The notes: generated by a model from the sequence alone, not told the origin. Positions 5,295-45,374 are shown, numbered from the whole stretch's first letter. The stretch is 63,413 nt of DNA, filler included, from Aduncisulcus paluster (GCA_024181965.1; 35 parts of 35 records of this genome joined end to end with filler, not necessarily neighbours in it); one strand, 5' to 3'. Numbers and translations are program-made.

Positions 5295-5338
5295 TGTTAT
5301 AAATTTAACCCCACTACACTGGGGTACCCATGGCCACA
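5295..5338 (-). mobile_element. Putative 44-bp LTR (TGTGG...TAACA), preceded by a polypurine tract at 5339-5358
   Basis: Minus strand ggggaggaaggggggtagga|TGTGGCC...TTAAATTTATAACA|atatgatcaaat. Confidence 0.55.
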
Positions 5339-6356
5339 TCCTACCCCCCTTCCTCCCCAAACTATTCATTTCGGCTAATCCAGCGAAACCTTTGGGTGGG
5401 AGGACATGCAGCGGATAACAGCGATAGAATCGGGCTTCATATGCTTTTCGAGCAGCCTCCCGCCATAGGCAACATGATTGTGACCACTGCTTTGCGTATT
5501 CGGACAGGGCTTGACTAACACCTTTGTAAAACCCGTATAGTATTGGGTGCTCGCAATCTTTCCATACTCTATGTAAAAGGTATACAGTGCCGGGGTCTTA
5601 CGTTCAGATCAAACCTCTACTCCACGACCATTAGACTTCTCTTGTGATAACACCAACAAAAAGAAGCCAAGTCCTTGTTGTGACAATCTTCCTCTTTATT
5701 ACTTTTGTTTTCATCGCCAAGAAAGAATGTTATTTGATCCTCTCCGCCTTCATTGTGGTGAAGTGCTTCATGACCTGCAACTGGGACACACACACACAAT
5801 TTCGAAAATTTGAAATCAGCAAAATCTTACAAAATGTGAATTTTGCCGCATTTGAATGTTTCTTTAAAGTCGAAGTTTATAAATTTATAATCACTCTCTA
5901 TTGCGGTTATTTCCCTTACTAAATCTATTTAATATATTTTATAGATTCTTAGATAAGGCATGATGAGTTGTTATCTCCTGATCAGGTGGTGCCACAGCGA
6001 TATTAATAGTGTTTTTGAAGACTCTTCTGCCCATTCATTATATTTTGCCTAGTTATTCTCTGATCTTTGTGAATGTATTAGAAGATGATTTCTTCAAAGT
6101 ATTCCCATCGATCTCGATGATTTAGTTCTAAATAGAAATTGTATTGAGAGTTTTTTGTCAATATTTCAATAGGAATATTCACTAATATCATTACCCTACC
6201 CGTCTTCATCTCCTAACTCTTCCTTCAGCTTTGGATGTTCCTTGAGATAGTCGTCGNNNNNNNNNNNNNNNNNNNNNNNNNNNNNNNNNNNNNNNNNNNN
6301 TTAATTAATTAANNNNNNNNNNNNNNNNNNNNNNNNNNNNNNNNNNNNNNNNNNNN

Positions 6357-6613
6357 CTACCCTTCCTCTTCCCCTTCCCTCTTGTTCTCTCCCAATGTCA
6401 CACAAAGAAGAACCACAAGTAATAGATGCATCGAGTCAATTACAAGCATCACCACATCTTGTGGATGCCAGTCGTGGTAATGAGATGGCACAAGAATGTT
6501 ATCGTGAACATGGACATTTAACTGAAAGATCATCTCAGTCACAAATATATAAACCCCTTCGATCTAAACATCCAAAGAAAGGGTCAACAATAACAAACCC
6601 AACCACTGCATTA

Positions 6614-6648
<35 letters not shown>

Positions 6649-7705
6649 TTCTTCCTCTTCTTCCTCTTCGATAACTCTTACTTCAGAAATATTAACAAGT
6701 TCTGCAGCCTTTCTTTCTGAGCTCCTTTTGGCTGCAAGGATAGAAAGGATGATCTCAAGGCACATCAAAAAAGAAGTGAACAATGAAAAGGGGGATATAT
6801 GGTTATCTCAGAACAAAGAAATCGGTGTTGAGGATTCTTTGAAGGGGAAAAATTTTCCCAATTTAGAACATATTAATCCTTCAGATCATCCCCTTGTTGA
6901 ATACAAAAGTGTTGAAGAGTGTGAACTCATTGAAGAGGAAGAAGAAACTAACGATAAAGAAGGAGAAATATCCAGCCAAACCTCCACTAAATGTGTACAA
7001 AAAGCAAGGAAAGGTCATGAAGAACAAGAAGAAACTGATGAAGAAGAAGATAAGCATCAATTGGATCCCCCAGCCATCCATGAAGTCTCTTTCTCTCTCT
7101 CTGATGAATTGTCCTTCTCTGATATCGATCTTGATGTCGGAAGAGCAGTTGACTATTACTATGAACATCGAAAGGATAAAGATGCTTTGCGAGCCCTTTT
7201 CCCATCGTTGTATGAGAAGTTTCAGCTATTTAAAACTCCTTCAAATATTATGGGTGGAGAAGGACTGAAAAGGAAGGAGGGGATTAATGCAAATGAATCA
7301 GCAACATCATATCATCACAGTTCAGAAATTAGCACTCATCCGTCAATAGCTATAACAAATAAGTTTCTGAGAGCTATTTTTAGAATGAGAAAGTCGATGA
7401 AGGATATGATTGGTGAGGTTTCAAGACTTCGTACTCGGTTAGCGGAAAGGGAAGAATATTGCGTTTCAATGGAATCTCGGCTTAACGGATCCATCCAAAA
7501 GTTACAGCTTGAGGCTAAAAATAGATCAGTGCACGGGGATCTGGGTGATACTGATTCTATTCCAATGAAGAAGAAAGAAGAGAGTGATGATGGTGAGTGT
7601 AGTCAACCAGAATTTGAAGGATTATCTCGCAAAGAGCTTCGACATCGTTTGTCCGAGACTGAAAAGAAATTGTCCGAAACACAAGAACGAATGGATAGTG
7701 TAATT
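6357..7705 (+). CDS. Hypothetical poly-Ser/acidic coiled-coil protein (partial)
   Basis: Long ORF with C-terminal heptad-like segments. Confidence 0.65.
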
Positions 7706-8061
7706 NNNNNNNNNNNNNNNNNNNNNNNNNNNNNNNNNNNNNNNNNNNNTTAATTAATTAANNNNNNNNNNNNNNNNNNNNNNNNNNNNNNNNNNNNNNN
7801 NNNNNTATCAGAAACAATTATAATATTACTAATTATGGATTATTTATAATATTATCCTTCATCAATATGTTTACTAAGTGATTTAAAATACAACTCATTA
7901 TTAGAGCATATTATTCCTAAATTATGCAAAAAAAATATATATATACTATTTATTATACCAATAATCTTAAATTATAATATTATATTTCTCCCGTCAACCA
8001 TTCGGTGTAATTTTCACATATGCGCCCTTTTATTTTGACAACACTGCCATTATATAAAGCT

Positions 8062-8201
8062 GTTCCCCTGGGTCTGATCAACCCGGGGGAGCGTAAGTCT
8101 TATGATTTATTTGTTCATGTTCCGTTTTTGGCCCCTTGGTTGTCCCCCCCCATATCTCACTGTCATTGTCTCAAAATGGGGGGGGGACTCCAACGATTTT
8201 T
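8062..8201 (+). other. Two GC-rich hairpins plus conserved G8-ACTCCAACGATTTTT motif
   Basis: Stem 8062-8073/8081-8092; stem C8AT(8144-8153)/ATG9(8176-8186); 23-nt identity to the minus strand at 57311-57333. Confidence 0.7.
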
Positions 8202-8547
8202 ATTTTTTTGTTTGTAAATTAAGAAAAATTATAAAGTAAAAGATTTTTTATAGCGTTTAGTATATATTTTTTATCTACCGTAATACAGCAAGTATTATAC
8301 GTTGTACAATATGTTTAAACTCAGATAGGGACTGTTTTACATATATGTATTTACATATGTGAAAACAATATGTTGAACACATGTGCTACAGAAAATTTTA
8401 TTCGTTGTGACAGATCATATTCTCGGTAAAATAAATACTCTCTCATATGTTTTTATTGCTTAGATAATATTAATTTGCATTTTAATATGTAGATTTTATA
8501 CTTTGTAGGCTGATCAATATAAAATTTCAAATTTCCTTGTAAAAGAT

Positions 8548-8864
8548 ATGGCAAGAACCAAAACAAGGAAAACCAGAGCTGCAGTTGCAACCGAAGCTTG
8601 CATTCAAGCCTTTACCTCCCTCCAGGAGAAGAAACCCAAGGATTTTTGGGCGGCCCTTCACACCGTCCTCCCCGGGACAAAAGACGGGGAAATACCTCCT
8701 TCCCGTGAATCCGTGATTGCCCTGATTGGGCTTATGATCGACGATGCCCACTTTAAACACATAGTGGCCTGCAAGACCCCCCGAAAGCCCCTCCTGGCCA
8801 GACTGCTCTGCATCACAGGGAAACTTTTTCTCAGGATCGAACCCGCGGCGGGAGACTTTGTGAT
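8548..8864 (+). CDS. Divergent histone H3-like / H3-tail-mimic protein (3'-partial)
   Basis: Begins MARTKTRK; FW..L..V...E.P.S....IAL.G.MI motif shared with 49268-49822. Confidence 0.55.
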
Positions 8865-8964
8865 NNNNNNNNNNNNNNNNNNNNNNNNNNNNNNNNNNNN
8901 NNNNNNNNTTAATTAATTAANNNNNNNNNNNNNNNNNNNNNNNNNNNNNNNNNNNNNNNNNNNN

Positions 8965-10690
8965 AATCTGACATTCCAATTGTTCTGGAAACAATGTACG
9001 GATAAGACATCTTGGGCCAGAATAATTTGAGAATAAATACCTCCAATAGGCATTGTTTGAAGCTGGATAAAAACATGATAATGACTTGACAATTTCTCTC
9101 ACTGCATTTCCTGGAAGTGATTGCAGACAATCATCATCTTCTTCAAACTCAAAAGCATCCATGGCACATGTGGAAAAGGGTAATATTTGGACATCTTTTT
9201 CTCTATATCGAAGGAATGAAGGAGAAAATGAAGATTTTCCACTGAAATTTGAAGATAAAAGTATCGGTTTTGTATTGGTTGGATCGAGATGTACTGGACC
9301 ATTGTAACGGAATTTCTTTGAATATCCAGAATAATTTGAAAATGGTTTTGCTCCAAGAATCCAGAGAGAATCGCTATCTTCCTCAAGTGGGGTACACAAC
9401 AACTTGGCAACTAATAAATCAGGAGAAGTTATCATAAGAATCTCTTCTTGGACTGAACCATGTCTTAGAACACCACCTCCAATCCTTTTGTTGGCAAAAT
9501 CTGTAACATTATACTTGATTTGACTTTCCACGGTCAACATCGAATCTTCAGGATCCGCAATGCTTATAATAGAGCTGAGATCATCATCAAAGCGTAAATA
9601 TTCATGATTGTGTTTGGAAGAAGAAGATTTTTTTCTGGATTGAGAGCGAAAAAATTCTTTGGAAATATTTTCGGGAGAGTATCTTGCAGGATCCTGTGAA
9701 TATTCATCATGAGAGGGGGCCTTTTTCCTGAAATACCGACGGATATCGACTTTCGAGATTGTTTTATAGATGAGAATAACATGATTTTCAGTCAAATGTT
9801 TTGATTTACCGTTGATATTGAGAGATAGGAAATATTGTAAAATGCAAGCACATTTTTCAACCTGACAAAGTGNNNNNNNNNNNNNNNNNNNNATCATCAA
9901 AGCGTAAATATTCATGATTGTGTTTGGAAGAAGAAGATTTTTTTCTGGATTGAGAGCGAAAAAATTCTTTGGAAATATTTTCGGGAGAGTATCTTGCAGG
10001 ATCCTGTGAATATTCATCATGAGAGGGGGCCTTTTTCCTGAAATACCGACGGATATCGACTTTCGAGATTGTTTTATAGATGAGAATAACATGATTTTCA
10101 GTCAAATGTTTTGATTTACCGTTGATATTGAGAGATAGGAAATATTGTAAAATGCAAGCACATTTTTCAACCTGACAAAGTGGAGATGAAGATGAACTTT
10201 TGGGGGTAGAATAAAGCATAAATTCCATGTCATTGTTTGGATGTGGAAATAAGTTGAAGAAAGAAGCTGCAACCAAACCAGCACACTCGAGAAGACTGAG
10301 GATCATAATAGGATGGTCTCTATCAACCATATCAAAAAGAATTGGTGCTCTAGAGGAAGATTTTGATTTTGATAATGATCGTAGAAATGAAAATAATGCA
10401 TAAAGACAAGATCTGAGAGCATTCTTCAAGATGTCACTCTTTGACATTACTGGTGATGATTTCTCATATATACGTTCAGTGGCTTGAGAAATAAGGGACA
10501 TTAATGAAGTTTTGTTTGCCTCGAGTAATGGGCATAAGCCCTTGAATACCTTAACAAAAAAATCCACAAATCTACCCTTATAATATTTGAGAGATTCAAT
10601 ATATTCCTGACATTTTGTACAAGCAGCAACGATATCTCCCCTTGAAATAAATTTTAAGTTCATAATTGCCACAAAAACAATATTTCTCAT
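8965..10690 (-). CDS. PARG: Poly(ADP-ribose) glycohydrolase (3'-partial; split by an assembly overlap)
   Basis: DFANKRIGGGVLRHGSVQEEI = PARG GGG-x-QEE catalytic signature; FSNYSGYS and AMDA motifs. Confidence 0.9.
9583..10182. repeat. Identical 290-bp duplication flanking a 20-N gap (assembly artefact)
   Basis: 9583-9872 equals 9893-10182. Confidence 0.9.
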
Positions 10691-11119
10691 CCAACCGATG
10701 TAAAAGGTTGCTTAGTGGACTGATTTATTCGGGCTGGATCAAAATTCATCGATAAATTTATTCAAAAATCCTTATTTTTGTTCTGAGTTAATTTGTTTCT
10801 ATCATTATCCTTCTTGAGGTGTGTGGATTTCCAAGCCAACCAAATGATTCGTAGAACTGCCTCCTCAATCGTTGAAGACTTGGGATCATTAATTATAGCA
10901 ATCAATACATTCGATAAATTGCATTGGCTAGTCTATTTGCAGCACAAAACTATCGTTACAGCCATTTCTTCATTCCAGAGGGAATCTGTATAAAATAGCC
11001 AAGTGTTTTAATGTTTTCATTAATAACAATACAGATCTAAGAAAATATGATTTATATTTTCGTAAATGATCTCAGTTCAAAATTTCAGTCAAGGCGCTTT
11101 GTAATTTTCTCGTATTATA

Positions 11120-15727: not shown

Positions 15728-15827
15728 NNNNNNNNNNNNNNNNNNNNNNNNNNNNNNNNNNNNNNNNNNNNTTAATTAATTAANNNNNNNNNNNNNNNNN
15801 NNNNNNNNNNNNNNNNNNNNNNNNNNN

Positions 15828-16471
15828 GAAGGAGTCTTTTGTATCCATAAATCCCGATTCCAATCCTTCAAAAGATCACATTTGTTTAGAAATACAACGA
15901 CACTAACCTTCTTTACATGCATTTCTTTCTTTGTAAATGAAACGATTGGCCATACGTAACCTCTCTTGGGATGAAATATTAGGGTAGAAATATGATCAGG
16001 CGTAATAATAGATTTTGGGGGGATTTTGAGAATCCTCGCGGCAATATCATGTCTATACACTCTATCTTCAGACAATCTGGCACCCAGGGCATCGACTCCG
16101 ACCATACAGACAAAACAAGATTTGTATTTCTTGGAGGATTGTGATTGATACTGGTATGAGAAGGAATGAGGAAATTTCGTAGGAATAACGGGATCTCTAT
16201 ATGATAATGCAGCTTTTAAAGGCTTTCCACGGGCGCCATCAGCTTCAACAATGACTACGTCGACCAAATTACTATCCAAAAGATCGCATGCCAATTGCGG
16301 ACTTGTACCCTGTTCTTTACCATCATATAGACCCGAAGAAATGAAACCAACGATGCCCAATGGTATTTCCAATAATTCTTCTGACGAACTCGTTGAAACC
16401 AGCTCAATTCTCGGACGTTCGCGAGTTTCTCTCGTATTCGCAGTTCTGGTCAGTTGATTCTCGCCCTGCAA
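15828..16471 (-). CDS. yqeC: YqeC-like selenium-dependent molybdenum hydroxylase accessory protein (partial)
   Basis: DVVIVEADGARGKPLKA..DPVIP, VGVDALG..L...VYR, VFLNKCD. Confidence 0.75.
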
Positions 16472-17111
16472 GGCGGATACATGGCATCTTGCAATCCGTC
16501 CCTGCTACAATTGCAACCCATGTTGCTGTAGCGCTGAATCCTCTATTTGACCGTGCTGTGACCGCATACATAGTGCGTGCTAAATCTCGTGCTCTCAAAT
16601 GCGTGTCAGCTCGGATGACCGTGGCTCAAGGTGTTCTTTTTTCCGGTGACATACCCATCGATCCCCCCCTTGATGTTCAATCTAGTGATCTTCCAACTAC
16701 ACCAGCCGATGTCCCTCAGGCATCAACTACTACCACACAACAAGAACCTCCTTCCTCTTTTACTGTTCCGTCTCCCTCAGTCCCTCAACCAACCTCACAT
16801 CGTCATCGTATGATATCTTCCTGATCACAATCGCTCTGGAGCCATCTCAACCCTTATCTCCACTTTTGCTGACATCGATCGTAGGATTCGTACTCATGGT
16901 CATAGTGAAATCAACAAGGGTCTTGAACGCCTTCTAACGTGTACTCAGTGCTACTTAGTAGGGCGTAAAAGGAAGCGTGGCAGAAAAGGAAAAGGGGATG
17001 GTAAATACCGTNNNNNNNNNNNNNNNNNNNNNNNNNNNNNNNNNNNNNNNNNNNNTTAATTAATTAANNNNNNNNNNNNNNNNNNNNNNNNNNNNNNNNN
17101 NNNNNNNNNNN

Positions 17112-18551: not shown

Positions 18552-19706
18552 NNNNNNNNNNNNNNNNNNNNNNNNNNNNNNNNNNNNNNNNNNNNTTAAT
18601 TAATTAANNNNNNNNNNNNNNNNNNNNNNNNNNNNNNNNNNNNNNNNNNNNATTGCCAATGACTCGGTCGTTTTGATGTTCTCAATGGTGAATACGACAG
18701 AGGATTGGTCAAATGGCCGGGATATAATTGACATACAATAAAATAAACGGTCTTTGTGTGTCCAGGAAAGAACGAAAGGAGACAAAATCGAAAAACAAAA
18801 ATGGTCGATCCATTTCATTTCATTTTGGACCCATTCCCGACCTCCCATGTCCGAATGTTTTATGCTACTAACCATAACTATGTAAAATGATTGCATTGGG
18901 TGTGTTTTCCAAGAAGAGATTTCTCGATATTAGTATATAACCTTCCAGAACTTCCGATAGTCGCTACAACTTCCATTACTCCCTAAGTTGTCAACATGAT
19001 GTCCATATATCCATTTATTATGATTTGTATAAACGCGATTAGTTGCCGATTTTATCATTCTTTTAAAGACTTTGTCTCTGTAGAAAATGGAATCCGATTC
19101 GAAATTCGAATCTTCAAAACATGGTTGTTTGGGGATCTAAATGCCCCATTATCTGGGTTATTGTAACGATGGTCAAATCGATTTTAAGAAGTGGATTGCT
19201 GACGAGACATGGATAAGTAACTCTACTGTTGGTGAGTTTAATCGTCATTAACAGATCTTATTATGGTCTTTATCGAAGAACAAATGGTTTATATTTTATC
19301 TGTAAATGAACAAAAAAGTATGTTGTGTTCCCCGCAGCAGTATAATGTGGATGTATTGGAACAGATCCATCAGAAATCTTCCTTACCATATTCTACTCCT
19401 TAAAACCGCGGTATATATTTGTTTATCCAATTTTATTTCCTTGATTTGAAATGTACTTCAACAAACTAACCGAAAAAATCTAGTTCAACCAAAGCCAAAA
19501 AAGTCAAAATCTGTTGTCGTGAATACAAGGAAGAATAATCAATTTGAAACAGAATTAAATTATAAAATTAAAAAATAATTAATTATAGAAGACATTTTTT
19601 ATTTTCTGAGACCATTTAAAAGCATAAGAATCCTGAGGGAAATATCTGTTTCTCAGGACAAAAATACCATTTTTTTTCCATTTTTGACTGAATTAAAATT
19701 ATTAAA

Positions 19707-19933
19707 ATGTTTAAGACAAATCATTTTAATCCCCCTTGGTCCAGAACTATTGCTGGTTATAATAATTCCAGCCATTCTAAGACCAAGCTGAGATTCACTT
19801 CTGCTTGCCTCAGCCCCATTGCTTCCCTGCACATTATTTGGGTATTATTCGCTATTATGCTTGTCCTTCCCATTTATGGTTCCTCTGATGTCATTCCAGA
19901 TTCTTTCCTCCTGAATGACGTCTGCCTTGCCCT
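19707..19933 (+). CDS. N-terminus of an LRR surface protein, near-identical paralog of 34081-34307
   Basis: MFKTN(H/N)FNPPWSRTIAG...DVCLA almost identical at DNA level. Confidence 0.8.
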
Positions 19934-20574
19934 NNNNNNNNNNNNNNNNNNNNNNNNNNNNNNNNNNNNNNNNNNNNTTAATTAATTAANNNNNNNNNNN
20001 NNNNNNNNNNNNNNNNNNNNNNNNNNNNNNNNNCTATTCTCACTCAAGGAAACAGTACCAAAGGAAAGAGTACCATCAACTGTTACATCTTCATCAAATG
20101 AAGCACTGTTACCAACATTCAATACACGATGTATCTTGTTCACGATCACAGGAGTGGAGATAGACAGACTTGAGTTGGCTGCACTGTATAAAATGGCTTT
20201 ATATGTCAATAGAAACAGAATATCCTGAATAAAATGACCCGTAGTACTTGTTATACAGAGCATTCCTGAAGAATTTGATGGGTAAGGGAGGATATTTGAA
20301 TCAACAGTATCATACTATGATAGCTTAGGAAGGATCATTAATATCAAGACCTTTGGTACTTCTGACTAATATTCTCTCATTTTCAAAGACCAATACCGAG
20401 AGAATCTAGTGAAATGGATGTATAATGCAGATTCTGATCCGAAAATAAAGTAATGAGCTGGTCAGAAGGATGAGACATAATATCTTTGATACTAACTGTG
20501 AATAGTGTAGATATGGTGTGATTAACAGTTTTTTGGTCCTCAACGAAGCGACACTGAAAAGGGATGATCATCTA

Positions 20575-20627
20575 TGATAAAATAAAAATATAAATAAATT
20601 CGTGAGCAAAATATTATTATTATTACA
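20575..20627 (-). mobile_element. Putative 53-bp 3' LTR (TGTAAT...TTATCA) after PPT 20628-20637
   Basis: 28 nt after the chromodomain stop: ggtgggggaa|TGTAATAAT...TTATCA|tagatgatcatc. Confidence 0.6.
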
Positions 20628-20655
20628 TTCCCCCACCAATGGGCGATTAAATCGC

Positions 20656-21264
20656 TCAATCTTCCAAACCCAATTCTTCTCTAAGTCCTGGGACAATGTC
20701 AAGATACCTTTCGAAGGCTTCTGTGTCCTTGACATTCTCAAACTCTTCCCAGGTCTCATCTTCTTCACTGTAATCTTTCCAGTGAACCTTGAATTTCATA
20801 ATCTTACCGACTTTTCCGTGGGCTTTGATTGACTCGACTTCATATAACTCACCATCCTTTCCTGATAAATTTAACAGCTCAGAATCCGATGCTGTTCCTT
20901 GGTCACATAATCTTAGACGGGAAATATGGGTTCTGAATCTTCTTCTTTTGTCCAAGCTTTCAATCCAGCAAAAGAAATCATCTTCTACTTCCACGACCTT
21001 GAACGGACCCATGTTTCTCGTTACATTCTTTCCCATTATTCTGCTAGTTTCTCTCACTAACCAAACTAGCTGACCAACTATAACTCCTTCTCCCCACTCA
21101 TGAAGACTTCCTAAAGTTTCTTCGCTCCTTCCTCTCGCCTTATCTTGAATCGTTGTCAACAATTCAGAAAGCTTAGTAACATATTCCGAGGATAATTGTT
21201 GTTGTTCTTCTTCTTCTTCTGAACCAATACAGGGAGTCCATAATTCTTCCAGAGATCCTCTACC
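20656..21264 (-). mobile_element. Chromovirus-type Gypsy integrase C-terminus (GPF/Y + chromodomain)
   Basis: GPFKVV...THISRLR; YEVESIKAH..FKVHWKDYSEEDETWE. Confidence 0.9.
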
Positions 21265-22004: not shown

Positions 22005-22544
22005 TATTGACCATGATGGAATTCTGTCTCGAGTGGAACCATCAGACATGATGTTTCTGCCGTTTCTGCCGTTTCTGCCTTCTCGGCTGTCTCTACCATC
22101 TGGATCTTTTTATTTCTACCCCTGACATTCTTTCTTTCCCCATTCATGTAATTATTTTACTTGTAAAGAATCACACAATACAACTTTCGAAGGCGCTCAG
22201 AAATTAATTAATTGTGGCGAATTCGTTGGAACAGATAATGATATTTCTAACATTAATTCTCTTTNNNNNNNNNNNNNNNNNNNNTATTGACCATGATGGA
22301 ATTCTGTCTCGAGTGGAACCATCAGACATGATGTTTCTGCCGTTTCTGCCGTTTCTGCCTTCTCGGCTGTCTCTACCATCTGGATCTTTTTATTTCTACC
22401 CCTGACATTCTTTCTTTCCCCATTCATGTAATTATTTTACTTGTAAAGAATCACACAATACAACTTTCGAAGGCGCTCAGAAATTAATTAATTGTGGCGA
22501 ATTCGTTGGAACAGATAATGATATTTCTAACATTAATTCTCTTT
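22005..22544. repeat. Identical 260-bp duplication flanking a 20-N gap (assembly artefact)
   Basis: 22005-22264 equals 22285-22544. Confidence 0.9.
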
Positions 22545-28153: not shown

Positions 28154-28546
28154 TTCAGCCAGCTTTTCATCATAGTCACTGTAAGCTCCTAATGTTCCGG
28201 CAATTATGACCTTCTTGCCCTGCTTCTGCTGATGGATCAGCCAATTAAGGAACTCGTCAGGATTATTCATCATGTCAGCGGAAAAAGAGGTGAAGACCGC
28301 CCGGTATTCTTCCATGGCTTTGTCAGAAGGCAAAGGACGCTGCGCAACATCACGCACCTCGTACAAGAAACCGAGGTAGTTAAGGGGGGCGGCAAAGCCT
28401 TCAATAAAATTATTATCCACTGCGGTGCGGTCTTCCGCTCCGTTATAGAGCACCAAGACCTTACGCTTGACCGGCTCGGCATAAGCGCAGGACAAAGCAA
28501 GGATGACAATCAAGAGTGCAACAATAAGCCTATTCAGCAACTGCAT
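28154..28546 (-). CDS. Bacterial PelA-like / polysaccharide deacetylase-associated secreted protein N-terminus
   Basis: Signal peptide, RKVLVLY, PLNYLG, GAGGTG RBS; operonic overlap with the upstream gene. Confidence 0.6.
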
Positions 28547-29486
28547 GAATAAACACCTCATTTAATGCCGGAGTGCTGACATAAGGAATAAAACCAAGAC
28601 TTCGAGAAAAATCGTAAGCTTTGCTGATTTCCTGTCTCTCTCCAGCAGGAACGTAATCAAGGGTCAATACCACCAGTTTGGGGTTGGCTTTCAAAGCGGA
28701 ATTCGCCTTGGCAATAAGAAAACTACGATCTGCTTCCGGAACATCTTTACGAGTGGAAGTTGCCAAGTCCATGGAGCTGCTCAACCCTTCAATCAACAGG
28801 TAATTGATATACGGAGCTGTCCGCCGCACAATTTCAAATCCCCTGTTCTGGCAAAGAAGCATCTTAGGAAATTTTTCCCTGATTGCACGGACCAAAGCAA
28901 CGCAAGAACGTTCAGTTCCCTTGTAGGTCTCGGGGTCGCGTCGCTGCATATCAATCGGGGAATCAAGCGTATCAAAAAAAAGCCCGTCATATCCGGCCGA
29001 AAGGACATCGGGGATAATTCGGGCAAAAAGCAATTCGCTCCATTCCGGACGGCGCACATCCACCACCCATGAATCCCAATTCTCATTATATCTTACAAGC
29101 AGATTAAGATGCCTGGCTTCCTCGTAATAAGGTCCGTTAGCCGCAACCTCACCAAGGCTGACATAAGCCAAAACCTTTACCCCTTTTGCGCGTAAAGGGG
29201 TTGGGTCCTGTCCTTCGGGATCAGAGACCAGTAGATCAAAACCGGACAGTTCATCCGTCCGGTCCTCACTTCCGTAATAACAGGCCCACGATTCGACATC
29301 ATGACTCTTGCCAAAGACGAAAGTCCTGCCGAAAAACGAAAAAGTAATCACAAGCAGCGCGACTATTGCGCAGAAACGGAAGACATTGCTTCTACCATTT
29401 CCGCAAGGGTTTCCTGCGCTACACTGTTCAGGGATTCCGTACATCCGAAAAAGCACCCCCCACTCTTGGAAGAAGATGAAGCCCAA
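28530..29486 (-). CDS. Bacterial endo-alpha-1,4-polygalactosaminidase-like glycoside hydrolase (GH114/GH166, PelA-hydrolase-like); true start probably ~29350
   Basis: LAYVSLGE, NENWDSWVVD, GYDGLFFDTLDS, QNRGFE, TLDY. Confidence 0.85.
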   Translation of the reverse strand: MGFIFFQEWGVLFRMYGIPEQCSAGNPCGNGRSNVFRFCAIVALLVITFSFFGRTFVFGKSHDVESWACYYGSEDRTDELSGFDLLVSDPEGQDPTPLRAKGVKVLAYVSLGEVAANGPYYEEARHLNLLVRYNENWDSWVVDVRRPEWSELLFARIIPDVLSAGYDGLFFDTLDSPIDMQRRDPETYKGTERSCVALVRAIREKFPKMLLCQNRGFEIVRRTAPYINYLLIEGLSSSMDLATSTRKDVPEADRSFLIAKANSALKANPKLVVLTLDYVPAGERQEISKAYDFSRSLGFIPYVSTPALNEVFIHAVAE

Positions 29487-29593
29487 AGCACATTACCGGA
29501 AGAAACATCAATCATGCGCAGGTTGATACCTACTGAAGGACTCTGGTTAACACCGCGCTTATATTGGTACTCGGTAACAGAACCATAAATAAC
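29363..29593 (-). CDS. Bacterial PelC-like lipoprotein C-terminus (missing from ORF track)
   Basis: Translated manually: VIYGSVTEYQYKRGVNQSPSVGINLRMIDVSSGNVLWASSSSKSG...ESLNSVAQ...*. Confidence 0.7.
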   Translation of the reverse strand, partial: VIYGSVTEYQYKRGVNQSPSVGINLRMIDVSSGNVLWASSSSKSGGCFFGCTESLNSVAQETLAEMVEAMSSVSAQ

Positions 29594-31097: not shown

Positions 31098-31519
31098 ACA
31101 ATAATGTCCTCATTTAGGGGATCTTCCGGGTCCACAGTATCAAGTAGTTGATGTAGGCGCTGTACAAAAAAACTGACAGAACGTTCGTCCGCCTTGCGGA
31201 GTTTTAAACGTTGTAATTCATATAATACGTCCAACGCGGATTTTTTTCCATAAAAATCCGATATTTTTTTCAAGAAAACCTTCTCGGTAGCGACAGGAAG
31301 TCCATCATCAGCAGGATTTGGAATAGCTGGGTTCACAAGTTGACATTTCCCGATACTCTCGTAGATCTTCCGGATTGGTGCTGTAATACACACAAATAGG
31401 GCAGCTTTTCCATTCAGAGCTCGGTATCTACGAAATTTTTCAAGAAATGACCGGAAGGCTGCTTCTCCGTATTTTGCCAATAAAGGCACTCGAAAAAGGT
31501 CAGTTTCAGGGCTTATCAT
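31098..31519 (-). mobile_element. Gypsy gag N-terminus
   Basis: PLLAKYG..F..F...YRALNGK..LF shared with the gag at 43592-44714, which carries CCHC and protease. Confidence 0.8.
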
Positions 31520-31542
31520 CTACCTTTGTTTTTGATCAAAAA

Positions 31543-31612
31543 TGTTGCGGTAGCAAATTTACTAAAAAGAAATCTTCTATGTGTATTCTATTTTTAGAAC
31601 TGGGCCATAACA
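31543..31612 (-). mobile_element. 70-bp 5' LTR (TGTTATGG...CCGCAACA) nested in another element's RT
   Basis: Imperfect terminal inverted repeat, AGTAAAT, bounded by RT coding sequence on one side and palindrome+gag on the other. Confidence 0.75.
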
Positions 31613-32424
31613 ACGTGAAGGGCTTGCTGGAGGAAGGCCTAATCGCCGAGTCAGACTCTCCTTGGTCGGCTCCAGCCTTACTAACCGATAAAAAGGGCAA
31701 CGACACACGACTGTGTGTGGATTACTCTGCTCTCAACAGGAATACACTTCCGTTGCCTTTTCCAATCCCAATGATTGCAAAGATGCTGACTCGACTGGGA
31801 GGCAAAAAGTGGTATGCCACTCTAGATCTCCGCTCGGGATTCCACCAAATTAATATAAAGGAGGATTCGACAAAATACACAGCATTCACAACACCATCTG
31901 GGCATTATGAGTACAGGAGACTTCCATTCGGACTCAAGAATGCACCAACCCATTTCCAGGGCCAGATGTCCAGGGCATTCAGAGGTCTTATTCCAGAGGT
32001 CTGTGAGATCTATATTGACGACATCATCATCGCCGCAAACAGCCTGGAACAATTGGTAGAGAAGTTACGACAAGTTTTCGACAGACTAAACAACCTCAAT
32101 CTCCGCCTCAAGGCGAAGAAGTGTGTCATAGGTGCGAAGAAAATAGAATATCTGGGGATGGAACTAAGCGAAAAAGGACAGACTATTGCTGAGTCCAGAC
32201 TTCAGGGAATCAGAGATTTAAAACACCCCACAAACAAGAAACAATTGAAGACTTTACTGGGGTTCTTGGGATACTTTAGGCAGTTCATACGGAACTACGC
32301 CACAATCGCGTCACCGCTTATCGAGATGACAGCAAAACAGAAGAGCTTCGTGTGGAAGGAACCACAGGAGGGAGCCTTCAAGAAACTCAAGGAATTACTC
32401 CTGAAAAGACCAGTACTAACTCAC
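31613..32424 (+). mobile_element. Ty3/Gypsy reverse transcriptase (partial)
   Basis: SPWSAP, RLCVDY, LDLRSGFHQ, LPFGLKNAP, YIDD. Confidence 0.95.
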
Positions 32425-32524
32425 NNNNNNNNNNNNNNNNNNNNNNNNNNNNNNNNNNNNNNNNNNNNTTAATTAATTAANNNNNNNNNNNNNNNNNNNN
32501 NNNNNNNNNNNNNNNNNNNNNNNN

Positions 32525-33191: not shown

Positions 33192-34080
33192 TGCAAGGAT
33201 AGTGATATTGTTTTCCAAAGGGGAAATGATTCTTTTGTTCCCTTGAATATCTTCTCAGGATAATACTCTTCCCAATTTCTGATTATTCGCTTTTGCATCG
33301 AAGATGAAGAAAGGCATCTCCATGTTGGCTTGAAATCTCAACACGACGCTAATAAGAGATCTCTCTTAGCGAGACTCGCTAGATCCGATCTAGAATGATA
33401 TGATAGGCTATGATCGAGAGAAAAGTAATATTTTTACTCGAAATAAAGGGAACAGTAAGTATGGAAACAAATTATCAGTGGAAAGCAACGAAAAGGATGA
33501 TCCTTGAAGGATCAAAAGTAAAGAATGGAGAGAAATGAAATGATACAGCGAAAATAATGTTTTGATGAACCTCAACAACTTGTTAGACACTGTTTAACAC
33601 CTCCAACAGATCTAGTATAGTAAACAACGCGGCGTTTCCCACTGGGAAATTCCCAAGGATTGATGGGAGACTCCATCTGAGATATAAGAATATAAATGAC
33701 GACTCACAATTTATAACATGTTTTTGGGTGGGCTTGGAGCCGGTATAGTAGCATAATACAGGCCTGACCAGAGTCGTTTTGTTTTTCTACCCAAAAAGTA
33801 AATATATCCGCCACTTAAAACATTTTATCTCATTCAATACATTTTGTTATCAAAGTATTATTTATAAATGATCANNNNNNNNNNNNNNNNNNNNNNNNNN
33901 NNNNNNNNNNNNNNNNNNTTAATTAATTAANNNNNNNNNNNNNNNNNNNNNNNNNNNNNNNNNNNNNNNNNNNNCCAAGAATGAGATAAACACTTGAGGG
34001 AAGTATTTATAATAATTTCTCTTGAGCAACAAATGGATTTGTTTTGCAAAATTTGTTTTGACACAATTAAAATCATTAAA

Positions 34081-35312
34081 ATGTTTAAAACAAATAATTT
34101 TAATCCCCCTTGGTCCAGAACTATTGCTGGTTATAATAATTCCAGCCATTCTAAGACCAAGTTGAGATTCACTTCTGCTTGCCTCAGCCCCATTGCTTCC
34201 CTGCACATTATTTGGGTATTATTCGCCATTATGCTTGTCCTTCCCATTTATGGTTCCTCTGATGTCATTCCAGATTCTTTCCTCCTGAATGACGTCTGCC
34301 TTGCCCTTGACCATGGAGCTCATTGTGACGACCTGACTTCTGACGACCTCCAAGATCTGACCTCCCTGAACACGTACTTTGTTGACTCCTTCGCTGGGCT
34401 TGGTGGTGCGACGAACCTCACGACGCTGTATGTGAGCAACACGGACTCTGTGTCCAAACAGATGGGCACCAGTGACATCGAGCAGCTTCCCACGAGTCTT
34501 GAGACGCTGACGCTGAATAACATCGACATTGCGCCGAACACGGATTTCTCGCGTCTGACGTCTCTGCGTGCATTGTACTTGACCGTTGGTGACGTTTCTT
34601 CTGGCGACTACTGGGCAACTCAGCTGTCCTCCTTGAGTCCTCTGTTCGACTCTGACAATCACTATGATGTCACTGTGCAAGGCATGTTCCCAGCCTCACT
34701 CACCACGCTTTCCGTTGCTGGACGCACGAGTGTCACGTTCCCCGCCTTCTTCACGAGTCTCGTCCTGTCCGATGGGTCTGCACTCCCGGCGTTGACGACG
34801 TTGGATCTGAGTGGCACCAATGTGGTCGACCTCTCACCTTTGCCTTCGACTGTAATATCTTTGAACATTAAACAGAAATATATTGATGGAAATAATACAC
34901 TATATCATGAAACATATAATACCCGAGACTTCAACTCCATTCCATCCACTGTGACTGAGCTTATCATAGGATTCATGGCTTATACATATCTAGATTTTCT
35001 TGACAACCTTCCGAACCTTATTCATCTTGAAATCTCAAGTTGTACTGTTTATCTTTCCAAGCTCATTCAAGTCAAAGATACACTGGAGTATCTTAGTTTC
35101 CGGGATGTTTTGATAATGACAGATTTTTCTATCTTGGGTGAACTTCAACACCTCAAGTATTTGGAACTTTATGATGTTGAATCATATAGTCCTGATTGTC
35201 CTGATCTTTCATCCCTTTCAAGTTTATCACATTTGATTCTTCATAGATTCTATCCAGATTATGGAGAATGGGAAATATCTTGGCTCTCTGCCTTAACTCA
35301 GTTAGAATATTT
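34081..35312 (+). CDS. LRR surface protein with N-terminal hydrophobic segment (3'-partial)
   Basis: IIWVLFAIMLVLPIYG followed by irregular LRRs. Confidence 0.8.
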
Positions 35313-35413
35313 NNNNNNNNNNNNNNNNNNNNNNNNNNNNNNNNNNNNNNNNNNNNTTAATTAATTAANNNNNNNNNNNNNNNNNNNNNNNNNNNNNNNN
35401 NNNNNNNNNNNNT

Positions 35414-36737: not shown

Positions 36738-36911
36738 NNNNNNNNNNNNNNNNNNNNNNNNNNNNNNNNNNNNNNNNNNNNTTAATTAATTAANNNNNNN
36801 NNNNNNNNNNNNNNNNNNNNNNNNNNNNNNNNNNNNNAATCAAAACTCCGCGAGAGAATAGATTATTCATCTCAAGAAACAAGAACTCGAAATTTTTCAT
36901 TAAAACTATTT

Positions 36912-40647: not shown

Positions 40648-40974
40648 NNNNNNNNNNNNNNNNNNNNNNNNNNNNNNNNNNNNNNNNNNNNTTAATTAAT
40701 TAANNNNNNNNNNNNNNNNNNNNNNNNNNNNNNNNNNNNNNNNNNNNGGCACAAAAAGGTTAATAAGCAAACAGACGATATTTCTGAGTAATTATCCCAG
40801 TAATAATTCCCCAGAAGGAGAGGGGGGAAGAGTTTGAGGGTATTTGCTTAATCTAAGGTAAAAGATCAAGGGAAAAGGAATAATATAATGGCTAGAAAGG
40901 GAACCAGAGGGAATTACACGGTTCTAAGGCAGCGCTAAGGAAGTTAACCAAAAACAAGGATTTTGGTAAAAATA

Positions 40975-41056
40975 TGAGAAAGTTGGGATTCGAACCCACG
41001 CGCTTAAATTGGCAAAGGAGGCATGACCGGAGTCATACCCGCTGAGCCATCGAGCT
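40975..41056 (-). pseudogene. tRNA-like cassette (A box + B box/T arm; acceptor stem unpaired)
   Basis: TGGCTCAGCGG ... GTGGGTTCGAATCCCA. Confidence 0.7.
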
Positions 41057-41183
41057 GTTATAAGAAAAGAAAGAAAATAATAATAATAATAAGGAATCTA
41101 GAATTTGAGGAATTGTATTATACCTACGAATAAGGTTTGATTAAAAGAAGGATTGAGCGGGTAGTCCAGTTCTAGGGGGGAAG

Positions 41184-41266
41184 TGTGAAGTTCTCAATGA
41201 TCTATTTATAGAACTGACCCACTCCGATCACATTTATTCAATAAATTGCTAACGTCATACACGGCA
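41184..41266 (+). mobile_element. 83-bp LTR preceded by PPT (41174-41183) and followed by gag
   Basis: AGGGGGGAAG|TGTGAAG...TATTTATA...AATAAATTG...GGCA|ttggacatcATG. Confidence 0.65.
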
Positions 41267-41275
41267 TTGGACATC

Positions 41276-42060
41276 ATGTCAAAAGCAATTCTTAGGCTAA
41301 CGAACAAAGTGGAGTTATTAGAAGCTCGAACTTACACTGAATCAAAAAATTCACTGGAGACGTCCAGTGATACTGCTTCACCTGGTAAATTCGTAAAATT
41401 TCCTATTTTTAAAACTGAGAAAGAAAAAATGTCCATTTCCACTCATCCCCATGAACCCATTTTCGGTGAGAAAAAATTTATCAGCGACACCGAGACTCGA
41501 ACCCAGGCCCCTGCCGCAGCAAACCCTGTAAGTGACCCATTAGATTTCGCTGATCCTCACGAGCAAAAGAAACTTCCCCCACCCGTATGTGGAACTCTAC
41601 CGAGGTATCCATCACCCCTAAAGACCCATCATGCCCTAGCATCAGATGAATTTCTCACAGAGGCATTCGCAAGCCCACTAACAAGAACAGGTCTTGAACG
41701 AAAGCAGATGACACCTGCAATGTTCGATGCAAGAACACACACTCTTCACTCACCCGCAGTTATCTCGGAAGTGGGCAAACCACCGATCCTAGAAGTATTA
41801 AGTTTCAAGGCTTTTGAGACCTTTATCTCCAGATACAAAGCATACGAGAGCAGAGGGGGAACTCGCCCCATTCACGCTTGCATACCTGATTGCGTCGCCA
41901 GAACTGTTATCGCGTACCATCCAGACTCTTCTAAGGATGTCTTTACCCTTGTCAAAGAGGAAGTCGCCCCAAAGACCTTAGAGGAATTCGTCGCACGTTT
42001 GAGCACGTACAAGTTATACTATGACAATACGATGACATCAATGCACAAGTACAATATCAA
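41276..42060 (+). mobile_element. Gypsy gag (3'-partial) with N-terminal extension
   Basis: PILEVLSFKAFETFISRYKAYESRGGTRPIHACI homologous to the other gags. Confidence 0.7.
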
Positions 42061-42160
42061 NNNNNNNNNNNNNNNNNNNNNNNNNNNNNNNNNNNNNNNN
42101 NNNNTTAATTAATTAANNNNNNNNNNNNNNNNNNNNNNNNNNNNNNNNNNNNNNNNNNNN

Positions 42161-43491
42161 AGGAGTTGAGCTAAGACCACAGCTATTGAATTCATAAAGA
42201 ACATCCTGTGTGATCTCACCAACCCATGAAGCCAACTCAATGTCTTCAGCCATCATTCCACATCCACCTGCACCACATGTACACTGATTGAACGTACATG
42301 GAGAGGCAGCAGTCTGGAGATCGACAATTAAGTACTCGGTGTACAAACCACCGGCATATTGAACGGCAGAACAGTTCTTGAATTCGGTACCAGAGAGATC
42401 AAGCTGGGTGTAAGAAGAGGAAAAGACACCCTTGGGTTTGGTGAGGTACACAGCACCACCACTTCCACCACTGGAACAGTTAGTAAAGGAACATCCAGAA
42501 ATATTGACGAAAGGAACAGTAAGGTATATGGATCCACCATCACTGCCAGCAGAAGATCCAGAGAACTCAGCATCAAGGATCATGTAATCTGGATTCATGA
42601 GAAGACTCATGGTCAAGGTGAAGTGGAAATCACCTCCCTTACCACCGGCACTGTTGTGATCAAACTGACCAGCAATCACCTCGAAGGCAGTCACTCCATC
42701 AGTATCGAGACATCCACCATTACCACCGGCACTGTTGTTGTCAAAAGTTACCTCTTGGAGGATCACTTCTTCACAGTCGGAGGATAACACACCTCCATTT
42801 CCATCAGCATGGTTGGCAGTGGCATAGACCTCATAGAATACAAACTCAGTGTACTCGGTAACATACAGAGCACCACCATCCCCACTAGCACTGTTACGGC
42901 TGAAGGTGAGACCTTCAAGAGTAATTTGCTGTTGGTTTCCAGAGCTAGCTTCTCCAGAGATGTAAATGGCACCTCCATTTCCAGCAGAAGCAGTATTGTT
43001 GGTGAAATAGCCATTGTCGAGAGTAAAGTTCTCAGCACCAACAGTCTGTTCATTGACATACATACATCCACCATTTCCAGCAGCAGTGTTGCCATCACAG
43101 GTTACATTGACAAACTTGGGCTTGGCGACATCTTGCAAGTACAAGGCACCACCATCACCACCGGTACACTCGTTATCCTCAAAAGCACTGTAAGTAAATG
43201 TGATGGATCCAGCGTTTTCAAGGTGGAAGACAGCTCCAGAACCAACGGATGTACAGTTGCTGAACTCACCATATTCAAGAGCGATAGACTCTTCCCCAGT
43301 TCCAATAACACATGCAACAGCACCACCAGGACAGTCTCCAGAGTCAGCTGTCTTCACAATGTTCGTGTAGCCACCAAAGTAAGACTTGAACTGGGTACAT
43401 TCGAACATGGAATGGGATCCAAGCGTGATGTTAGAGAATTCATTCATAGCAATGTTTCCGAAAACAGTGGCACTGAACAAAGGAGTGTCTG
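42161..43491 (-). CDS. Pmp-like (GGA[ILV]/FxxN) beta-helix repeat protein fragment
   Basis: Repeated FxxNxAxxxGGA[LIV]Y motifs. Confidence 0.85.
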
Positions 43492-43591
43492 NNNNNNNNN
43501 NNNNNNNNNNNNNNNNNNNNNNNNNNNNNNNNNNNTTAATTAATTAANNNNNNNNNNNNNNNNNNNNNNNNNNNNNNNNNNNNNNNNNNNN

Positions 43592-44714
43592 TGGGCATTA
43601 CGTAGGCTGAGAAGGCAAAGCACAAAGCTTTCCTCCCCGGTAACTCAGGAAACTCTGCCTTAAGTTTAACTTTCTTTTGCAGGTCCAAATTCGAACCATC
43701 CGCCAATTCCAATGATATTGGCACCGAACTACTCCTGATAGACTGATTTTGCTGCAATCTATCAACCACCTTAAAACTAATAAAATTTTCTTCAGCTCCG
43801 GTATCCAAAAGAGTTTGTACAGAATGTTTAGCCTTATAATTATCACACCATAGGAACGTTGACAAACAAGGAGAAGCTGCTTTACTAGGGAGAGAAACAG
43901 CCTTAGCGGATCTTCGTTTATCCGTTCCATTTGGACAGTCTCGGGCATAGTGTCCCATTTCATGACACTTATAACATTCTACATCCTCGATTCGAATTGT
44001 GGGTCTTGAAGTTACGTGAGGCCCCATCTTCTTCCTGTCTTTCATGAAAGAACGCTTTCTTCCATCAGAGTTGGTCCCCTTGAACGAGGATAATTCACGA
44101 CGTGAATCATGTTTGTGGAACTTCTTACTTGTTGATTGAGAGTAACCCTGATATTGGGCTGCGTCCTCGCGAGACTCCTTGACGATTTGAAGTTGACTGA
44201 AGACCACTTTAGTGAGATTAGCCAAAGAACGCTTCTCCTTCTGAAGGGCAGCTTCCATACGCGTTTTAAACGCTTGATGTTCAATTCCTTTGAGAAAATA
44301 CTTGCCAATCGTCTCCTCAGTGAGAATTTCGTCTTTGTCTAGGCGACGGATTGTGGATCGGTACCGCTTCACATAAGCTGCGATTGCATCCTCGGTTACT
44401 CGTGTAAGCTTTGTCTTTGACAAAATGTTGAGAACATCGAGAGCAGAATAATGACCAAAGTAAAGATCCACGGCGTTCAAGAAGTCCTCTTCGCTTGATT
44501 TCACCAAATCATCAGATTCAAGATCGGCCGGGTTAGGAAGCTCATTTTCGGTTACATCCTCATAAATAGCACGTGTGTCCGGATTGATTAACGCAAACAA
44601 GGGCGTCTTCCCTCCCAGGGCACGATAACTTTCAAAGGACTGCTGGAATGCAGTAAAATACTTCTGCCCGAACTTAGACAGTAACGGTCTTTCTTTGTCG
44701 ATTAGTCTTTCCAT
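43592..44714 (-). mobile_element. Gypsy gag-protease (single ORF, 3'-partial)
   Basis: CYKCHEMGHYARDC knuckle; LLDTGAEENFIS protease. Confidence 0.92.
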
Positions 44715-44737
44715 AAAACGACGTAATTGATCAATTA

Positions 44738-44785
44738 TGATGTGTTCTTAGGAAACGGAACAAATTTACTCAATAAAGAAAAACA
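44738..44785 (-). mobile_element. Putative 48-bp 5' LTR (TGTTTT...ACATCA)
   Basis: Contains AGTAAAT; followed by a 14-bp palindrome, 9 nt, then the gag ATG. Confidence 0.6.
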
Positions 44786-45162
44786 CCGGTTGATGTCTAA
44801 AAATAGAATCTCTGAGAATGATACCTTGGGATCATAACACTAGCACGATCAACAACAGTAAATCCAGGTCCTTCCAATCTCCAATTCAATATAGTCAGCA
44901 CTTCAGTAGTCATAAGATTAGCGATAGGTGGTATCATAATATCAGGATACGTCTCAATAATAGAGATAAGTTGATTACAAAAAGCAAGAGCGGCATCTTT
45001 ATCAGCAGATTTCAATTTCACAACATAAACACNNNNNNNNNNNNNNNNNNNNNNNNNNNNNNNNNNNNNNNNNNNNTTAATTAATTAANNNNNNNNNNNN
45101 NNNNNNNNNNNNNNNNNNNNNNNNNNNNNNNNCATAGAATATTGTGGTAATCGCAATAAAAA

Positions 45163-45374
45163 TGATTTGGTGTGGTTCACAATTTACTTCTTTTATACCA
45201 TTCCTATGACAAGCCTTGTCAACCAACCTGTGACAACTGTTGCCTGTCAACTTTACAATAAAGCGACCGTGTGGGACTTGAACCCACAACCATGGCATTG
45301 TTAGTACAACGCCATAACGTCTCGTCCATGAATGCACATTTGTACATTTTATGGTAATAATACACATCACAACA
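45163..45374 (-). mobile_element. ~212-bp 3' LTR containing a tRNA-like cassette, TATAAAA and AGTAAAT; PPT at 45375-45392
   Basis: aaaggagaaagggaagga|TGTTGTG...; right end at ...AAATCA inferred from spacing after AGTAAAT. Confidence 0.65.
45263..45335 (-). pseudogene. tRNA-derived sequence (Ile/Val-like, CT-AAC-AA) inside the LTR
   Basis: Perfect T arm GTGGG-TTCAAGT-CCCAC; acceptor and D arms do not pair. Confidence 0.7.

Follow-up and report, generated by a model that had tools for sequence, protein, structure and literature searches.

Within a long terminal repeat (LTR), an element has to accommodate a promoter and a poly(A) signal as well as the R repeat that strand transfer requires and the two ends recognised by integrase. 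Very short LTRs are described in Oryza brachyantha, in which FRetro129, a non-autonomous Ty1-copia element of the small LTR retrotransposon (SMART) class, carries 85-bp LTRs, its putative autonomous Copia partner FRetro64 carries LTRs of 76 and 90 bp, and relatives of the two have LTRs of 105–117 bp (PMC3281118). Among chromoviruses, Tf1/Sushi and Tcn1 are described as self-priming, with no tRNA-type primer-binding site (PBS), in a study that ran LTR-FINDER with a 100-bp minimum (PMC6317226). The Helenus miniature retrotransposons with terminal repeats (TRIMs) carry a tRNA-like sequence in the LTR (PMC10886601). For fornicates, the passages of the Hexamita inflata genome report that concern LTR elements give only a RepeatMasker count of 727 (PMC11787283), the accessible parts of the literature found on Carpediemonas and retrotransposons do not describe fornicate LTR structure, and a literature search for Aduncisulcus and retrotransposon found no paper. 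Here, we analyzed a 63,413-base stretch of DNA from the fornicate Aduncisulcus paluster, referred to as the window, in which six TG..CA segments had been proposed by a first-pass annotation as LTRs of coding Ty3/Gypsy chromoviruses, five of them ultra-short (44–83 bp) and one of approximately 212 bp. We consider it fairly probable that these segments are the ends of several autonomous Ty3/Gypsy chromovirus families with unusually short LTRs, of approximately 70 and 102 bp in the two best-delimited families and at most 53 bp in a third. Two further families probably possess LTRs of 44 and 53 bp.

The window consists of 37 contigs of 900–5,835 bp that are separated by N44+TTAATTAATTAA+N44 spacers and also contains two scaffold gaps of 20 N each. 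The contigs with transposable elements are 1.1–2.7 kb long, only one end of each insertion is present on any contig, and statements on the flanks of the candidates are valid only within contigs of 1.1–1.4 kb. A Pfam scan of 96 open reading frames (ORFs), together with a lenient rescan of 22, located pieces of Ty3/Gypsy elements on several contigs:

3817-4311: RNase H
20659-21264, minus strand: integrase C-terminus and chromodomain (Chromo, E 4.3e-8) upstream of candidate 2, with the stop at 20656-20658
31387-32424, plus strand: ORF with RVT_1 (E 8.4e-36)
43593-44747, minus strand: CCHC gag ORF (zf-CCHC, E 5e-6)
46183-46374, minus strand: end of the chromodomain ORF (Chromo, E 1.3e-7) on the candidate-6 contig
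46477-49167: contig with CCHC gag, a protease-like region, RVT_1 and RNase H
60766-62114: contig with RVT_1, then RT_RNaseH, then rve, on one strand

The last of these contigs shows the pol domain order of Ty3/Gypsy chromoviruses, namely reverse transcriptase (RT), RNase H and integrase, and the C-terminal chromodomain of the integrase, a chromovirus feature, is present at 20659-21264 and 46183-46374. The gag at 43593-44714 matches three database proteins at 62%, 99% and 100% identity, the two closest of which are partial. All three carry the NCBI name Aduncisulcus paluster, which supports a fornicate host. The coding content is a direct observation, and the initial claims of coding Ty3/Gypsy chromoviruses (RVT_1, RNase H, rve, Chromo and zf-CCHC in Pfam) and of a fornicate host (gag 99–100% identical to proteins that NCBI assigns to A. 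paluster) both hold.

The six segments, numbered here as candidates 1–6 by position, are all present, with TG...CA on the sense strand, which is the plus strand for 41184-41266 and the minus strand for the other five. Each begins with TGT and ends with CA, and a G-rich purine run immediately precedes the TGT of candidates 1, 2, 4 and 6, forming a junction of polypurine tract (PPT) and LTR, PPT|TGT. The TG..CA pattern alone discriminates little because CA occurs every few bases. Among the boundaries originally drawn, both ends of candidate 3, the 3' end of candidate 5 and the PPT|TG starts were retained, while the 5' end of candidate 5 and the 3' end of candidate 4 had to be moved. The remark that no contig shows both LTRs of one element was also correct: in an all-versus-all blastn comparison of the window contigs, no LTR candidate recurred, and paired LTRs therefore cannot appear in the window.

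The most sharply delimited case is candidate 3, which comprises the following features:

31613-32424, plus strand: 5'-truncated Gypsy RT of another element, in opposite orientation (RVT_1, E 8.4e-36)
31543-31612, minus strand: candidate 3, a 70-bp 5' LTR, TGTTATGG...GCAACA, containing AGTAAATTTG
31529-31542: perfect 14-nt palindrome TTTTTGATCAAAAA, abutting the LTR, 9 nt upstream of the gag ATG
31100-31519, minus strand: gag N-terminus, reaching the contig end (37% identity and E 1e-23 to the candidate-5 CCHC gag by alignment)

Along the minus strand, antisense RT is followed in turn by TGTTATGG...GCAACA, TTTTTGATCAAAAA, 9 nt and ATG. The RT homology begins at ORF residue 77 (nt 31615), and the stretch that precedes it in the intact element of contig 46477 is missing. 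This break indicates that the element inserted, in opposite orientation, into the RT of another element. Judged from the homology break, the outer terminus of candidate 3 is placed at 31612, to within about 3 nt, and the gag ATG (31519) lies 93 bp from it. With truncated RT abutting one side and gag starting so close to the terminus, the 70-bp LTR stands as first delimited.

Candidate 5 is bounded by comparison with other copies:

44840-45032: flank, a very high-copy repeat and the insertion target of the element (word depth, empty sites)
44738-44839, minus strand: candidate 5, LTR as revised, 102 bp, TGTTATGATCC...AACACATCA (run-contig loose ends, P0008 divergence)
44724-44737: perfect 14-nt palindrome TAATTGATCAATTA, abutting the LTR, 9 nt upstream of the gag ATG
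43593-44714, minus strand: CCHC gag continuing into protease (zf-CCHC, E 5e-6)

Contigs of two public runs (X1 and X2; Logan contigs from one sample) were compared with the candidate-5 contig only. In total, 314 X1 contigs were placed on the whole contig, and X2, whose RNA nature is only a guess, contributed three, none across most of gag. Loose ends of run contigs occur at 44839/44840 and at 44737. Past 44839, the flank runs on in six X1 contigs and one X2 contig into another sequence, on which they all agree and which corresponds to an empty site; in one X1 and one X2 contig, the LTR occurs next to another 5' flank at 44840. At the other edge, X2 record 10 (345 nt) contains 172 nt of flank, 44840-44737 with a 4-nt insertion, and then 65 nt; in the sense direction, its CA is followed by one base (T) and by TGGTAGTCGAA, which is TGG-type and PBS-like. 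One X1 contig has a diverged LTR end followed by other sequence, and one joins the LTR end directly to internal position 43895. In these data, the palindrome lies just outside the LTR. The word depth is approximately 16,300 for the LTR versus about 3,600 for the contig that runs from gag into the LTR, and the summed word depth of the flank reaches 400,000–500,000 versus approximately 3,500 for gag. Moreover, P0008, a gene model on another contig, shares sequence from TGTTATGATCCCAAG (TGTTATG; protein CYDPK, nt 44839 downward) and is unrelated upstream of it. The variable neighbours observed at both edges thus define a repeat unit of 44738-44839, as expected of an LTR. The segment originally drawn had the correct 3' end, but its 5' end fell 54 bp short, at 48 bp instead of 102 bp. 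The gag ATG is located 125 bp from the outer terminus; P0007, which is 62% identical to this gag, shares its start codon, and P0009, another gag match, extends into a DTG protease and RT.

The 30-nt loose end after the LTR of the sister copy was considered as a full tRNA 3' arm and rejected: it can be folded into a 5-bp stem, yet 11 of 200 shuffles do equally well, and only its first dozen or so bases are taken as PBS-like. The flank 44840-45032 contains an open frame of approximately 77 codons with no Pfam family, and a 918-nt X2 contig spans it and extends on both sides. The public gene models P0008 and P0011 fuse flanks to retrotransposon gag across predicted introns, with the P0008 splice leading from within the LTR to codon 25 of gag. 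Such fusions are annotation artefacts, yet they are records of the flanks of other copies.

From terminus to ATG, candidates 3 and 5 align in three blocks, which are TGTTATG, AGTAAATTTG, and CA followed by 4 nt and TGATCA within the 14-nt palindrome. The palindrome ends 9 nt before the gag ATG in both, although the two gags are only 37–38% identical. A search with the alignment of these gags gave 116 pattern matches among metagenome contigs and 55 among genome contigs, none of which was confirmed, and the exact LTR–palindrome junction had no match in the metagenome contigs.

The third family is represented by candidate 4:

41174-41183, plus strand: PPT-like AGGGGGGAAG, abutting TG
41184-41232, plus strand: candidate 4, LTR as revised, TG..CA of 49 bp (at most 53 bp to the homology breakpoint)
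41237-42058, plus strand: 5'-truncated gag-like gene (P0011 96%, P0012 43%, hhalign)

The AGGGGGGAAG|TG junction at 41183/41184 is similar to the junction of PPT and LTR in candidates 1 and 2. P0011, from another contig, is 96% identical to the downstream ORF, but only from nt 41237. Upstream of this breakpoint, it is unlike the candidate-4 contig and aligns with P0012 (E 0.001), a full-length protein, 43% identical, from a 14.4-kb contig. These alignments identify 41237-41275 as conserved coding sequence of a gag-like gene, and the downstream ORF matches the gag N-terminal motif in hhalign (E 5e-5, probability 67%). The AATAAATTG of candidate 4 represents gag codons N-K-L and, like the earlier end at 41266, lies within this gene. 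Accordingly, the PPT|TG start was kept, whereas the end lies by approximately 41236 and the last third of the original segment is gag-like coding sequence. As far as the sequence comparison goes, candidate 4 is probably the 3' LTR (at most 53 bp) of an element nested in the gag-like gene of another element. A tRNA gene beside candidate 4 was also considered and rejected: Rfam gave no tRNA match at E up to 1, and ARAGORN gave none.

Candidates 1 and 2 show a different arrangement, in which the segment stands between a PPT-like run and a palindrome:

6199-6255, minus strand: C-terminal tail of the pol ORF (...DDYLKEHPKLKEELGDEDG, stop) on the candidate-1 contig, by direct reading
5339-5358, minus strand: PPT-like GGGGAGGAAGGGGGGTAGGA, abutting TG, with a G-rich purine run at 5344-5358
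5295-5338, minus strand: candidate 1, 44-bp TG..CA segment; start credible, end by TGATCA only
5286-5291: TGATCA in an imperfect palindrome ATATGATCAAAT, 3 nt after the candidate-1 CA
20628-20637, minus strand: PPT-like GGTGGGGGAA, starting 18 nt after the pol stop and abutting TG
20575-20627, minus strand: candidate 2, 53-bp TG..CA segment beginning TGTAATA; start well supported, end by palindrome only
20563-20572: perfect 10-nt palindrome GATGATCATC, with TGATCA 4 nt after the candidate-2 CA

The succession of the chromodomain ORF stop, GGTGGGGGAA and TG makes the start of the candidate-2 LTR secure. The candidate-1 contig has no Pfam match; its pol tail resembles that of the candidate-2 chromodomain ORF (...YLDIVPGLREELGLED, stop) and is separated from the PPT-like run on the same strand by approximately 840 bp. 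With the palindrome taken as the start of the leader, both candidates probably represent PPT–LTR–leader, in which 44 and 53 bp would each be one LTR. Such contigs could arise as a short-read de Bruijn path through a multicopy repeat that is longer than k but shorter than the read, or alternatively from real tandem copies or one-LTR circles. With either origin, the span from PPT to palindrome would equal one LTR length.

A 13-nt palindrome, GCGATTAAATCGC, lies at 20643-20655, between the chromodomain ORF stop and the PPT of candidate 2. A second TGATCA palindrome, CCTGATCAGG, is found at 5973-5990 (minus sense), approximately 620 bp upstream of the candidate-1 PPT; it is preceded by TGGCACCACC, and the two together resemble an 18-nt TGG-type PBS. 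This site may represent a leader belonging to a different element, possibly a non-autonomous one.

Candidate 6 is the longest of the segments:

45375-45392, minus strand: PPT-like AAAGGAGAAAGGGAAGGA, before TGTTGTG, approximately 790 bp after the pol stop
45163-45374, minus strand: candidate 6, segment of approximately 212 bp, start plausible

It contains AGTAAATTG approximately 18 nt before the proposed CA, and the contig ends 30 nt beyond the proposed end, without TGATCA. A tRNA-like piece with D, anticodon and T arms and no acceptor stem lies inside the segment at 45271-45328 (minus strand); it scores 20.7 bits in Rfam versus a gathering score of 29 (E 0.23), and ARAGORN detected no tRNA in candidate 6.

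These data must be weighed against LTRs of ordinary length (200 bp or more), for which the short segments would be terminal pieces on short or partly chimeric contigs, truncated copies or nested insertions. The element contigs, at 1.1–2.7 kb and with both LTRs on none, leave room for this explanation. Candidate 6 would measure at least 212 bp if its proposed end is correct, and the roughly 800 bp of non-coding sequence from the pol stop to the PPT-like run in candidates 1 and 6 could be LTR, such that these two may have a longer LTR that starts earlier. Two of the six earlier boundaries were wrong, which marks the picking of segments by TG..CA as weak. Several further points also weigh against short LTRs. 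PPT-linked and gag-linked copies of one LTR were seen for no family in the window or the listed run contigs, and the loose ends of candidate 5 that are listed, all but two, include no purine-rich sequence. Neither gag nor any other homology was recognised beyond the palindromes of candidates 1 and 2, with gag sought by six-frame reading, by Pfam (E up to 1) and by tblastn (E up to 5), and the DNA downstream may be decayed or foreign. The candidate-4 boundary derives from protein-level comparison with predicted gene models, and X1 and X2 are not independent, as they share one sample and perhaps represent the source data of the assembly itself. However, ordinary-length LTRs are difficult to reconcile with the termini of candidates 3 and 5, which are observed directly and fixed by foreign sequence: the antisense RT in one case and, in the other, a host repeat whose other copies run on without interruption. 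The gag ATGs lie just 93 and 125 bp from these termini, the shared TGTTATG start argues against random truncation, and the neighbours of the candidate-5 unit vary on either side. In candidate 2, the PPT starts only 18 nt after the pol stop, and a leader-type palindrome follows the 53-bp segment. On balance, we regard ordinary-length LTRs as unlikely.

The short-LTR reading implies a simple layout. Each LTR would begin with TGT, either after a G-rich PPT (3' copies) or at the outer terminus of the element (5' copies), and end with CA; the same short LTR would presumably occupy both ends of each family and be divided into U3, R and U5. The first-pass annotation had noted a TAAATT core near the 3' end, which is present in five of the six segments as first drawn (all except candidate 2) and in four after the revision of candidate 4, and AGTAAAT in three, which we also found (candidates 3, 5 and 6). 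The background in the window is 0.59 per kb per strand for TAAATT and 0.11 for AGTAAAT. The motifs thus occur above chance, though candidates 3 and 5 are related. The (A)GTAAATT motif, 7–25 nt before the LTR end, may reasonably be taken as a poly(A) signal, which would leave a tiny R/U5. The first-pass annotation further proposed that U3-R-U5 may have been shortened in step with the small promoters and untranslated regions of the host. The proposed link to the Giardia-type signal was not upheld: of 23 ORF ends examined, 17 had sequence that could be read beyond the stop, and AGTRAA was absent from the first 80 nt in every one of these (some of the ORFs are perhaps bacterial or partial).

The distance from the CA to the TGATCA that follows is 3, 4, 4 and 4 nt in candidates 1, 2, 3 and 5, respectively, and none of these four has a TGG-type tRNA PBS after the LTR; CA, 3–4 nt and TGATCA are found instead. 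The window contains 28 TGATCA sites. Drawing five sites at random 200,000 times never yielded three or more placements 3–4 nt after an LTR end and yielded two only five times, showing that the placement is non-random. Perfect palindromes of at least 10 nt around TGATCA number four in the window, three of them at candidates 2, 3 and 5. Palindromes are generally common here, with 26 of arm length 7 nt or more versus approximately 10 in shuffles; what carries the argument is therefore the TGATCA core and where it lies, and not palindromy alone. The palindrome arms of candidates 3 and 5 are TTTT/AAAA and TAAT/ATTA, respectively; each of the two changes is compensated in the opposite arm, a pattern that points to symmetry being under selection. 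As read from these sequences, such symmetry would be in keeping with two genomic RNAs paired to each other, for dimerisation or priming in trans, or with a DNA-binding site that is symmetric. In four families, the internal region would start 3–4 nt after the LTR with a TGATCA-centred palindrome that replaces the TGG-type tRNA PBS, and we favour, with low confidence, a role of this palindrome in priming or dimerisation. The full proposition, that fornicate chromovirus LTRs were cut to 44–53 bp, below those of FRetro64, the shortest of any autonomous element in the literature considered here, and their PBS was replaced by a TGATCA palindrome acting as a duplex of genomic RNAs or a symmetric DNA site, is doubtful; if true, it would represent a previously undescribed start of reverse transcription or genome dimerisation.

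Three other roles were examined and rejected. Tf1-type self-priming was tested by RNAduplex of LTR versus leader, scanning the whole LTR with no fixed transcription start, and 37, 243, 107 and 283 of 300 LTR shuffles were at least as good. An intra-RNA hairpin of the palindrome is not stable (z-scores −1.4 to +0.8). For an element-encoded Dam-like methyltransferase acting on GATC, no such domain appears in the transposable-element ORFs of the window (Pfam), and the available part of the preprint behind this idea never mentions GATC or fornicate elements (bioRxiv 10.64898/2026.05.21.726589). In self-duplexes of the palindromes of candidates 2, 3 and 5, 15, 11 and 6 of 300 shuffles, respectively, were at least as good, a trivial result of palindromy.

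Instead of serving priming or dimerisation, the palindrome could act as an AT-rich initiator or promoter of the host type just ahead of gag, or mark a site favoured for integration. Fornicates such as Giardia have very short 5' untranslated regions (UTRs) and AT-rich initiators, and a promoter would suit both the 9-nt distance to the gag ATG in candidates 3 and 5 and the instability of the intra-RNA hairpin. However, none of 19 host regions upstream of a first ATG (approximately eight of which look like real gene starts) contains a TGATCA palindrome. An integration target should flank the element, whereas in candidates 3 and 5 the palindrome lies between the LTR and gag and is absent from the 5' flanks. 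Together with the compensated arms, taken as a sign of selected symmetry, this makes the two roles quite improbable.

Least probable is the idea that what precedes gag is not an LTR but a leader or 5' UTR, or else a small mobile unit in its own right, in elements with no matching 3' repeat and another terminal structure, which would agree with the lack of a PPT-linked copy of the candidate-3 or -5 unit in the window and the listed run contigs, and with a palindrome in place of a TGG-type PBS in candidates 1, 2, 3 and 5, but conflicts with the candidate-5 unit found off gag with other 3' neighbours (one TGG-type and PBS-like, one base after CA), the unit–palindrome–gag order kept between families with 37% identical gags, the DDE integrase with chromodomain, an enzyme that acts on LTR ends, and the classic PPT|TGT junctions of candidates 1, 2, 4 and 6.

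The remaining contigs of the window contain eukaryotic genes of ordinary kinds (IFT172-like, PARG, kinases) together with some that look bacterial, and the contig GC content ranges from 0.30 to 0.535. Bacterial-type families (DUF998, YqeC, GH114, Chlamydia PMP repeat and Sel1) occur at 2122-2568, 15830-16504, 28533-29492, 42161-43489 and 55395-55910. Given these families and the GC range, the assembly may hold bacterial DNA from prey or contaminants, or transferred genes. Each 20-N gap is flanked by an exact duplication, of 290 bp (9583-9872 = 9893-10182) at one and 260 bp (22005-22264 = 22285-22544) at the other; both are probably scaffolding overlaps left unmerged and not biological repeats. 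A 252-bp stretch with 97% identity is common to 19682-19933 and 34056-34307, the second copy lying within a gene for a leucine-rich repeat (LRR) protein, and probably reflects a recently duplicated gene family.

LTRs of 50–100 bp on autonomous elements show how small the LTR package can be. LTR finders with a 100-bp minimum, such as the one applied in the cited chromovirus study (PMC6317226), would miss these families, and the LTR content of fornicates and similar protists may therefore be under-counted. Of our findings, the more novel is the palindrome found where a PBS would lie, and its replacement of the tRNA primer site raises a testable question as to how these elements prime reverse transcription.

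The elements described here share with Ty3/Gypsy chromoviruses (Metaviridae) the CCHC gag, protease, RT, RNase H, DDE integrase, C-terminal chromodomain and a PPT abutting TGT...CA. They differ in that their LTRs are approximately 50–100 bp long, whereas those of the known elements are hundreds of bp, and in that four families have a TGATCA palindrome at the position of the TGG-type tRNA PBS. Like Tf1/Sushi and Tcn1, they are chromoviruses without a tRNA-complementary PBS; according to the account of those elements, their PBS pairs with the 5' end of their own RNA, whereas LTR–leader pairing here is no better than in shuffles. Candidate 6 resembles Helenus, as described, in having a tRNA-like piece in the segment after the PPT, but its match is below the Rfam threshold (20.7 versus 29 bits) and has no acceptor stem, and the element is coding and not miniature. 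Non-autonomous miniatures of the TRIM/SMART type are likewise rejected, since candidates 3 and 5 run into gag or gag-protease ORFs and candidate 2 follows an intact chromodomain ORF. The closest parallel in LTR size is FRetro64/FRetro129, whose very short LTRs belong to TGT...ACA-bounded elements. Those are plant Copia elements, described with both LTRs and a 5-bp target-site duplication, whereas ours are Gypsy elements with one end each, and no palindrome at the PBS position appears in the passages on FRetro64/FRetro129 considered here. On the figures given there, LTRs of 70–102 bp are rare but precedented, while the 44–53-bp candidates, if true, would be shorter still and would undercut the 76–90 bp of FRetro64 (PMC3281118).

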